A stretch of DNA of 64,000 nucleotides from Eledone cirrhosa (Eukaryota), in the NCBI GenBank assembly GCA_964016885.1, contig OZ024752.1, forward strand, positions 23,870,001 to 23,934,000. The letters are read 5' to 3'. How positions within the stretch are numbered: the first letter of the stretch is position 1; each line of letters opens with the position of its first letter. This document shows positions 1,962 through 4,167 of the stretch, piece after piece. Both the position numbers and the translations under genes were made by a program. A model generated the notes under the pieces. It ran no database searches, was not told the origin of the DNA, and worked only from the letters and a program-made list of their open reading frames with translations.

Positions 1962-4160
1962 GCACCAACCTGAGGCATATGGCCCTTAAAGCGAAGAAAT
2001 GCCGAGGACGGTTGGAGTTGGAGGGTCACTGATGAAGGACTCACTTTTTCATATGTATCCCATTCGCAACGCCGCAGCTCCATTATTATCATCATATTTA
2101 CACATATAACTTTTCCATGCTGCCTTCGTCTGTTTCGTTCCTTGTATCTTTACCACTTCTAGCAGTCTCCCTCTCTGTTACCTTCTCCTCAACTTTCACT
2201 CACTCATTCTCTGTCACTACCTCTCCTCCTCCTCCTTCAAGTTTGACCTGTGTGTAATTCTTTTCTCGCGCAGTCTTGACCGAGCTGGTATGGAATTTTT
2301 TTCTCTCTCTCTTTCGTCAGCGACTTCACAAAACTTGCGTTTACCGAATTCGTAGACCAGACCCCCTTATCTTCTTCTTCTTCTTCTTCTTCCTCTTCTC
2401 TCCTTTTTCTTTCTCTCTCTCTCTCTCTTTTTTCCCCCCCGTCAAACTTGGGCGAAATTCTTTCCTTGCTCACATTTCAACCAGGTCTGATGGTCTTTCG
2501 TCTCTTGTTCACGATTTCACAGAGTTTATATTCATAGAGATCTGGGACTTGTCTAATTCTACTCACTTTCCGTTGCTTAAACCTTTTTGTTGTTACTCTA
2601 GCGTCCCCCTTTATTTACGTGTCCCAACGACTTTGTTTAGCCGTTGTTCGCACCAACCTGAGGCATATGGCCCTTAAAGCGATGAAATGCCGAGGACGGT
2701 TGGAGGGTCACTGATGAAGGACTCACTTTTTCATATGTATCCCATTCGCAACGCCGCAGCTCCATTATTATCATCATATTTACACATATAACTTTTCCAT
2801 GCTGCCTTCGTCTGTTTCGTTCCTTGTATCTTTACCACTTCTAGCAGTCTCCCTCTCAGTTACCCTCTCTTCAACTTTCACTCACTCATTCTCTGTCACT
2901 ACCTCTCCTCCTCCTCTTTCCTCCTCCTCCTTCAAGTTTGACCTGTGTGTAATTCTTTTCTCGCGCAGTCTTGACCGAGCTGGTATGGAATTTTTTTCTC
3001 TCTCTCTTTCGTCTGCGACTTCACAAAACTTGCGTTTACCGAATTCGTAGACCAGACCCCCTTATCTTCTTCTTCTTCTTCTTCTTCTTCTTCTTCTTCT
3101 TCTTCTTCTTCTCTCCTTTTTCTTTCTCTCTCTCTCTCTCTTTTTTTCCCCCCGTCAAACTTGGGCGAAATTCTTTCCTTGCTCACATTTCAACCAGGTC
3201 TGATGGTCTTTCGTCTCTTGTTCACGATTTCACAGAGTTTATATTCATAGAGATCTGGGACTTGTCTAATTCTACTCACTTTCCGTTGCTTAAACCTTTT
3301 TGTTGTTACTCTAGCGTCCCCCTTTATTTACGTGTCCCAACGACTTTTTTTAGCCGTTGTTCGCACCAACCTGAGGCATATGGCCCTTAAAGCGATGAAA
3401 TGCCGAGGACGGTTGGAGGGTCACTGATGAAGGACTCACTTTTTCATATGTATCCCATTCGCAACGCCGCAGCTCCATTATTATCATCATATTTACACAT
3501 ATAACTTTTCCATGCTGCCTTCGTCTGTTTCGTTCCTTGTATCTTTACCACTTCTAGCAGTCTCCCTCTCTGTTACCCTCTCCTCAACTTTCACTCACTC
3601 ATTCTCTGTCACTACCTCTCCTCCTCCTCTTTCCTCCTCCTCCTTCAAGTTTGACCTGTGTGTAATTCTTTTCTCGCGCAGTCTTGACCGAGCTGGTGTG
3701 GAATTTTTTTCTCTCTCTCTTTCGTCTGCGACTTCACAAAACTTGCGTTTACCGAATTCGTAGACCAGACCCCCTTATCTTCTTCTTCTTCTTCTTCTTC
3801 TTCTTCTTCTTTTTCTTCTTCTTCCTCTTCTCTCCTTTTTCTTTCTCTCTCTCTCTCTCTTTTTTTCCCCCCGTCAAACTTGGGCGAAATTCTTTCCTTG
3901 CTCACATTTCAACCAGGTCTGATGGTCTTTCGTCTCTTGTTCACGATTTCACAGAGTTTATATTCATAGAGATCTGGGACTTGTCTAATTCTACTCACTT
4001 TCCGTTGCTTAAACCTTTTTGTTGTTACTCTAGCGTCCCCCTTTATTTACGTGTCCCAACGACTTTTTTTAGCCGTTGTTCGCACCAACCTGAGGCATAT
4101 GGCCCTTAAAGCGATGAAATGCCGAGGACGGTTGGAGGGTCACTGATGAAGGACTCACTT

Positions 4161-4167
<7 letters not shown>
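1959..4167 (+). mobile_element. Non-coding tandem array, 3.1 units of 688-719 bp, retrozyme-like, inserted in (TA)n
   Basis: cgcaccaacctgaggcatatgg recurs at 1961, 2649, 3362, 4081; unit length varies via (ctt)n tract and small indels; the array starts and ends with the structured ~90-nt module. Confidence 0.85.
2653..2730 (+). ncRNA. Candidate permuted hammerhead ribozyme with kink-turn (copies at 1965, 2653, 3366, 4085)
   Basis: GGCAU-A (stem III + AUA triplet), UGGCCCU/AGGGUCA (stem I), GAAAUGCC, CUGAUGA; outer helix CCAACC/GGUUGG with UGA/GAGGAC internal loop; stem II weak. Confidence 0.6.

Follow-up and report, generated by a model that had tools for sequence, protein, structure and literature searches.

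The window analysed here, a stretch of 64,000 nucleotides from Eledone cirrhosa (contig OZ024752.1, positions 23,870,001 to 23,934,000 of the forward strand), contains a non-coding tandem element in which each unit carries a hammerhead-like module. Judging from its sequence, and with a probability that we put at roughly 70%, we interpret this element as a Penelope-type tandem repeat set in (TA)n tracts, with a predicted self-cleaving hammerhead of the strand order site, GAAA, CUGAUGA. Stem II of this ribozyme would draw its missing strand from the module's 5′ end, and stem III would likely be kink-turned onto an outer helix, P4. The interpretation includes a scheme of propagation in which transcripts would be cut, circularized and copied by target-primed reverse transcription. 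The four-helix structure is well supported and we regard it as real, whereas catalysis is predicted.

Architecture of the module and its split core

The element extends from 1960 to 4168 on the forward strand and consists of three non-coding tandem units and a terminal fourth copy of the module (the first 90 bases of a unit), flanked by (TA)n. Modules begin at 1960, 2648, 3361 and 4080, and the resulting unit lengths of 688, 713 and 719 bp (unit ~713 bp) differ because TCT and CT microsatellites vary. This spacing bears out the ~700-bp tandem element proposed in a first-pass annotation of the window, which also located the array, at 1965 to 4162, although the true span is a few bases wider, and quoted the motifs of copy 2 letter-exact. 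The units are pyrimidine-rich with 43% GC, and the open-frame listing of the window shows no retroelement reading frame in the ~713-bp unit, including one for a GIY-YIG and reverse transcriptase (RT) protein. With non-coding tandem units that hold one module each, the element is retrozyme-like, as had been proposed. Its features are as follows, where S, G and C denote the blocks that carry the cleavage site, GAAA and CUGANGA.

1960..4168 (+): non-autonomous tandem element, set in a (TA)n tract at 1372-1959 and 4165-4286
1960..2036 (+): module copy 1, 5′-truncated at the stem II 5′ strand; predicted cut after 1979
2648..2718 (+): module copy 2, a split hammerhead of SGC order; predicted cut after A2667
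2648..2651 (+): stem II 5′ strand, pairing with 2679-2682; stands in for the strand after CUGANGA of known hammerheads
2653..2661 (+): P4 (outer helix) 5′ strand (2653-2658), followed by UGA (2659-2661), the kink-turn strand without the bulge
2662..2674 (+): block S, with the stem III 5′ strand, U16.1 (2666), H17 (A2667) and the stem I 5′ strand (2668-2674)
2679..2691 (+): block G, with the stem II 3′ strand (2679-2683), GAAA (2684-2687) and the stem III 3′ strand
2692..2703 (+): kink-turn bulge (2692-2694), GAC (2695-2697) and P4 3′ strand (2698-2703)
2704..2718 (+): stem I 3′ strand, CUGAUGA (2711-2717) and position 10.1 (2718), which can pair with 2683
2719..3360 (+): pyrimidine-rich unit body containing TCT and CT microsatellites; from stop to stop, the longest frame is 139-147 aa and of low complexity
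3361..3431 (+): module copy 3; predicted cut after A3380
4080..4168 (+): module copy 4 and the usual 3′ insertion end ~20 nt behind CUGAUGA, into (TA)n; predicted cut after A4099

All elements of the hammerhead core (CUGANGA, GAAA and U16.1-H17) are present. In copy 2, stem I comprises 7 bp including one G-U (2668-2674 with 2704-2710), stem III joins 2662-2666 to 2687-2691, and P4 joins 2653-2658 to 2698-2703, with G.A, A.G and C.U formed by 2695-2697 and 2661-2659. One strand of P4 follows the stem II 5′ strand and the other precedes the stem I 3′ strand. Stems I and III lie next to the core as first drawn, and both covary. The sequence also confirms the non-circular strand order that had been reported: rather than the cyclic order C, G, S of type I, II and III hammerheads, the module has S, G, C, and no GAAA in canonical order was found downstream of CUGAUGA. 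Copy 1 has an A at 11.1, which is able to pair with T1959, and a 6-nt duplication between the outer helix and stem I. A descriptor for the order site-GAAA-CUGANGA, requiring at least 4 bp in each of stem I, stem III and the 5′ helix, matches exactly the four modules in the window and nothing in 3.83 Mb of shuffled window. Rfam gives no match in the window at gathering score, and only five sub-threshold matches in 2560-3460 (E 1.6-8.1).

The module is abundant in the 3.0-Gb assembly, in families of different sequence. A 106-base query yielded 908 genome candidates (40 were scored, all 100% identical), and a 34-base core has 468 exact genome copies. A pattern excluding the window family (A) gave nine genome matches versus none in the control, and two of these, with the same layout and different sequence, led to families B (836 candidates) and C (172). 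Later searches yielded families D (1042 candidates) and E (1825) and a sister family, A2 (three copies). The strict descriptor is passed by 4 of 30 modules of family B, 14 of 25 of D and none of 30 of C, whose copies are too decayed; a gap-free alignment holds for A, A2, B and E. A relaxed genome pattern returned 29 matches against 29 in the control and was rejected as background, except for family D and single B- and C-like copies. At a further locus (L099:2259-2342, minus strand), a module related to family D has other stems, with a 6-bp stem I and a 5-nt bulge replacing the kink-turn, which suggests that there are more families than the six sampled.

Homologues were the check that the first-pass annotation had called for, and they show that all four helices covary across families here and in related species while the core is conserved. 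In 12 gap-free copies from four families, 93.6% of 264 cells are paired, compared with 69.7% after shuffling (0 of 500) and 29-47% in partner-sliding controls on the same copies. This set represents 12 of 28 copies, with six B copies hand-picked from 22. Two-sided changes occur at 16 of 22 pairs, a number that alone is not above shuffle (50 of 500), and at 5 of the 6 pairs of P4. Family majorities pair at 77 of 80 positions; exchanging strands between unrelated families lowers this to 111 of 200. Independently of the copies chosen for that set, contigs with three species labels carry, among the matches listed, double changes at 2671/2707 and 2673/2705 in stem I, 2664/2689 in stem III and 2659/2697, the third kink-turn pair; there the bulge varies, the G.A pairs are constant, and neither core nor stem II changes. 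The catalytic positions vary hardly or not at all between families with turned-over stems; at H17, the families parsed have A, C or U and in no case G.

Stem II is where the module departs from known wirings. Bases after CUGAUGA and bases before GAAA do not pair beyond the first position: 10.2-10.6 and 11.2-11.6 pair at 2, 1, 1 and 2 of 5 positions in A, A2, E and B, and never from 10.2. Because these strands scarcely pair, the module lacks the stem II strand that directly follows CUGANGA in type SGC hammerheads. Instead, the bases before GAAA pair with the strand just 5′ of P4, as TCGC/GCGA in the window, ACGC/GCGT in family E, GATGC/GCATC in C and GGCGC/GCGCC in D. This pairing comprises 4-6 bp, of different sequences, in all six families of the genome. 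In the 12-copy set, stem II cells are 93.8% paired, with two-sided change in 2 of 4 pairs, and the helix is presumably equivalent in three dimensions to a regular stem II. The leftover 11.1 can pair with 10.1, as A-U (A), G-U (A2) or G-C (B and C), and in family D the 5′ strand pairs 11.1 itself and leaves 10.1 unpaired; family E follows neither pattern. Since stem II takes its partner from the module's 5′ terminus, the break in the core falls after A9 or 10.1. The first-pass annotation had formed stem II with the 3′ tail (AAAGCGA/UCACUUU), a pairing that proved unsupported, as the linker pairs with 2648-2651 instead. That annotation overlooked the 5′ strand, which completes stem II and hence removes the weak point it had named, as well as the link to the Naiad elements discussed below. 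A 3′-tail hairpin serving as stem II is visible by eye in B and C and absent from the Naiad consensi Naiad_Ovul and Naiad_Esco, and was rejected as not general.

Box C/D and U4-type kink-turns have a 3-nt bulge, tandem G.A and A.G pairs and flanking helices. The hinge between stem III and P4 shares these features in families A, A2, B, C and E, together with a U.U, U.C or G.U third pair; unlike those kink-turns, it lies inside a predicted ribozyme and is replaced by other loops in relatives. With no base separating P4 from stem I, an intramolecular fold must turn sharply between stem III and P4, and the kink-turn probably supplies this bend. The proposed kink-turn thus fits the consensus, although not as a required part: family D has a 6-by-3 loop in its place, and most Naiad versions lack it. 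It is one hinge solution rather than a defining part of the fold.

Predicted cleavage, mobilization and competing explanations

If the module cleaves, 5′ truncations are expected at the cut, because reverse transcriptase would run off at the 5′ end that cleavage creates. We therefore considered truncated copies flanked by (TA)n among the matches listed (100 of 309). Ten of 31 loci start at the first base after the predicted cut and none at +1 or +2; the next most common start has four loci, and five of the ten cut-site starts have a non-matching base in front. Relative to a uniform spread over 51 positions, with offsets read by hand, p is 8e-5 for the 10 of 31 and 3e-4 for the five without microhomology. 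A second anchor gave 29 loci, which overlap in part with the first set; 17 of them fall at or after the cut, in a third of the range (p 0.005). In this second set, four copies start exactly three bases past the predicted cut, at C1:207539780, C2:214302520, C2:227801830 and C4:234610924. No peak is seen in 26 5′ ends among previously collected loci, a set biased by queries. The pile-up provides indirect support for the predicted cleavage after A2667.

Other ends and arrangements are also informative. Among 12 ends that enter (TA)n, eight stop ~20 bases behind CUGAUGA and four continue further. Hence the earlier claim that the array begins and ends with the module is accurate for the 3′ end, which is typically just behind it, whereas the start is one of many 5′ truncation points (3 of 31 truncated copies). 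The arrangement varies: there are long tandems (26 exact matches over 20 kb on C2), short tandems and units with an inverted 5′ piece (L018, L023 and L029). Divergence among copies is 0.46% in the module versus 0.4-5% in most of the unit, for loci that had been picked by module identity. Insertion into (TA)n with tandem and inverted copies is as in the Naiad Penelope-like elements; the available part of the Naiad report (PMC8557442) depicts Penelope-like elements, Naiads included, as inserting into (TA)n in tandem and inverted form and with a short tail. The element is thus likely a non-autonomous Penelope-type retroelement.

In the scheme that we propose, the tandem array would be transcribed and the transcript cut after A2667 and its equivalents into ~713-nt monomers, part of which are likely circularized, as has been shown for type I retrozymes in the available parts of PMC7229834 and bioRxiv 10.64898/2026.07.22.740005. 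A Penelope-type RT/GIY-YIG protein, likely Naiad-derived, would then prime in (TA)n ~20 nt behind CUGAUGA. Run-off at the 5′ end of the cut would generate truncated copies, and reading across intact junctions of a circle or an uncut multimer would generate tandem arrays. Arrays that cross several intact cut sites do require a circular or uncut template. Other (TA)n-inserting Penelope-type elements are abundant in this genome. In the window, broken frames that by eye resemble a Penelope-type RT with a C-terminal GIY-YIG nuclease lie at 9154-10074 (+), 13670-15886 (-), 23903-25005 (+) and 52121-53128 (-); Pfam assigned no family to four Penelope-like frames tested in the window.

The connection to Naiads comes from their published consensi. 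In the available text of Craig et al. 2021 (PMC8557442), Naiads are reported to be without a canonical hammerhead, and 18 of 54 are flagged as having a core or half-core. We parsed the consensi in this partly available source by eye rather than by program, covering 37 of 62, 21 of 25, 21 of 23 and 7 of 43 CUGANGA places. Ten consensi fit the split form (Naiad_Obim, Naiad_Ovul, Naiad_Esco, three Acropora Naiads and four further records), with a stem II of 5-6 bp; Naiad_Bfor fits except for a 2-bp stem I. The kink-turn is visible in the versions of Naiad_Obim and Naiad_Ovul, and among the Acropora Naiads that of Aacu fits the split form with two mismatches. Six other consensi, three from Nippostrongylus and three others in the nematode part of File S5, fit an intact type CSG, five of them with a visible extra helix. 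In the same material, the module is missing by eye from Naiad_Omin, Naiad_Adux and Naiad-1_Skow, five further supplement passages misfit, and another group of passages holds no 3′ module.

Several observations weigh against this interpretation. With the second anchor, 4 of 29 loci start at the cut, 4 at +3, 9 at +5 to +15 and 12 upstream. No RNA run contained more than 0.04 of the query words, too small a share to serve as evidence. The circular fold of the unit, at -123 versus -108 ± 6 kcal/mol for shuffled sequences and with 41% of bases paired, is weak for a retrozyme, and a nested fold of the module is no more stable than shuffles (z -1.0). In the window stem II has only 4 bp and -2.5 kcal/mol alone, compared with -4.6 for a competing tail hairpin; its third pair is unpaired in 13 of 22 copies of family B, and 10.1/11.1 is G.A in 19 of 19 copies of family E. 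The rows used for covariation are related to each other, and the structure was read from the same rows. Finally, no intact Naiad was found in this genome: each of its 53 Naiad-like RT matches is decayed, with no open frame beyond 233 aa, and none of 23 regions downstream of Naiad RT remnants has the module in place, though the family is young. A pattern of the Naiad_Ovul type likewise has no match in this genome.

Two alternatives are unlikely to a similar degree. The same pairings might form between two molecules or neighbouring units, such that the flanks at the foot of one hairpin supply what the core in a second hairpin's loop is missing, and cleavage would require a dimer. With merely 0-2 nt between P4 and stem I, a sharp bend is required in one molecule, in one Naiad record stem III and the outer helix are separated by a bulge of just 1 nt, and amphibian hammerheads are described in the available part of PMC7229834 as cleaving efficiently as dimers. 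However, a hinge (a kink-turn, a 3-6 nt bulge or an inserted hairpin) is found in all genome families and in the other Naiad records parsed, and truncated copies with a single module, as well as the single modules of Naiad tails, retain all pairings. The second of these alternatives takes the module for a hammerhead-derived signal, non-cutting or too slow, that a retroelement protein recognizes or packages, with truncations reflecting RT stops. Many tandem copies do span intact junctions, stem II is weak, and further junctions lie at +3 to +15 and upstream. Yet the near-invariance of catalytic positions while stems turn over, the consistent avoidance of G at H17 in the families parsed, and a truncation peak among the matches listed on the base predicted beforehand, with no starts at +1 or +2, weigh against this reading.

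It is less likely still that the module is an ordinary type SGC hammerhead with a one-pair stem II (10.1-11.1) and an incidental 5′ strand pairing. The 10.1-11.1 pair can form in A, A2, B and C, and just 2 of 4 stem II pairs change two-sidedly, but the 5′ strand pairs over 4-6 bp with differing sequences in six families and the ten Naiad records parsed, and 10.1 is unpaired where this strand takes 11.1 (family D and Naiads). A satellite with chance motifs or a box C/D-like kink-turn RNA is highly improbable: CUGA and the GAG-GAC strand resemble box D and box C′, and there is a weak Rfam match to ceN56 (E 2.8, 16 bits versus a cut-off of 60), but shuffled sequence gave no descriptor match, viral contigs yielded a background of at least 120 pattern loci among the matches listed with one having stems I and III of 4 bp, and box C/D or ceN56 identity was rejected because the score is far below the Rfam threshold and covariation contradicts it.

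Other features of the window

A tandem array of 310-bp units (34839-43174, more than 26 units, with an inversion near 41220) carries in each unit a minimal type I hammerhead in canonical order (CUGAAGA, a 4-bp stem II and GAAA CGCG UA) and is an ordinary non-LTR (long terminal repeat) retrozyme that Rfam misses at gathering score. Canonical-order CUGANGA-stem-GAAA sequences also lie near (TA)n at 12152 (-), 17999 (+), 33632 (+), 44876 (-), 45824 (+), 50453 (-), 53371 (+), 54679 (-) and 56224 (+); these nine sites are likely type I hammerheads of Penelope-like terminal repeats. At 4245-7448, two blocks of a 571-bp tandem repeat are separated by 1635 bp and set in (TA)n; the repeat has inverted arms of 186 nt that are 94-96% complementary. 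Nearly pure (TA)n spans ~17 kb at 18098-34846, interrupted by embedded fragments and, near 31100, by an N gap, and a broken long interspersed nuclear element at 46688-49175 has endonuclease (PF03372) and RT (PF00078) frames.

Comparison with known systems

The strand order, which the first-pass annotation left as perhaps undescribed, is that of the published type SGC. In the available part of Eckert et al. 2023 (PMC10085705), blocks S, G and C are assumed to be uninterruptible, types SGC and CSG are reported to cleave in vitro, and type SGC is known from metatranscriptomes only, with none in genomes of known organisms. Within the literature searched, which lay mostly outside subscription papers, this is the single paper that describes type SGC, and PMC13725137, as far as its available text goes, cites it in passing. 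The same literature yielded no description of a split block C, of a natural kink-turn in a hammerhead or of SGC and CSG ribozymes in Naiads. Hence the split wiring of block C and the kink-turn hinge would be the new parts, and the SGC order and hammerhead core the known ones.

The fold would be a circular permutation of one anti-cyclic ring, comprising types SGC, CSG and GCS with a stem I/II interaction helix, that is opened after A9 or 10.1. If the ring is written as S, G, loop x, P4, C, P4, loop y, then SGC would be opened at y, CSG at x and the window element inside C, with x and y together forming the kink-turn. We consider it probable, on balance, that this is a seventh natural hammerhead wiring, in which an anti-cyclic ring opened inside CUGANGA forms a four-helix cage with a kink-turn hinge through which the host protein Snu13 could control cleavage, that it is the missing ribozyme of many Naiads (CSG in nematodes, split in cnidarians and cephalopods), and that it drives at least six repeat families here. 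If true, this would break the stated rule that gives six possible hammerhead permutations, and non-circular permutations would pass from environmental RNA to animal genomes at high copy number. It would also explain why Naiads seemed to be without the ribozyme of other Penelope-like elements, since descriptor searches are blind to this wiring, and a natural kink-turn within a hammerhead would offer a ready system for protein-gated self-cleavage.

Compared with type SGC (HRIMA-1 and variants, in the available part of PMC10085705), the module has the same block order and core and a similarly short linker between stems I and II (typically 3 nt there, 4 here). In type SGC a fourth helix connects the remaining sides of these two stems; P4 has this connectivity and is presumably its equivalent. 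In contrast, the stem II strand follows CUGANGA there and lies at the 5′ end here, and the kink-turn hinge is seen here, the word 'kink' being absent from the main text of that paper. Type SGC is moreover metatranscriptomic with cleavage shown, whereas the present module occurs in hundreds to thousands of copies in an animal genome with cleavage predicted. Type CSG, described there from two metagenomic sequences, has the same block ring opened before block C, with stem II intact.

Naiads, judged from the available part of PMC8557442, resemble the element in (TA)n insertion and tandem and inverted copies, and Naiad_Obim, Naiad_Ovul, Naiad_Esco and three Acropora Naiads carry the module in their 3′ region; some are flagged 'HHR_half_core'. 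Unlike the element, Naiads have a reading frame; the fold is not described in that part of the paper, and nothing in sequence links the element to this genome's decayed Naiads. Animal non-LTR retrozymes, as presented in the available parts of PMC7229834 and bioRxiv 10.64898/2026.07.22.740005, share non-coding tandems, a ribozyme in each unit, GC below 50% and a Penelope-like link. Their hammerhead is of type I, which that of the element is not, their units are mostly 150-450 bp (51-972 in Li et al. 2026), and their circles have been shown.
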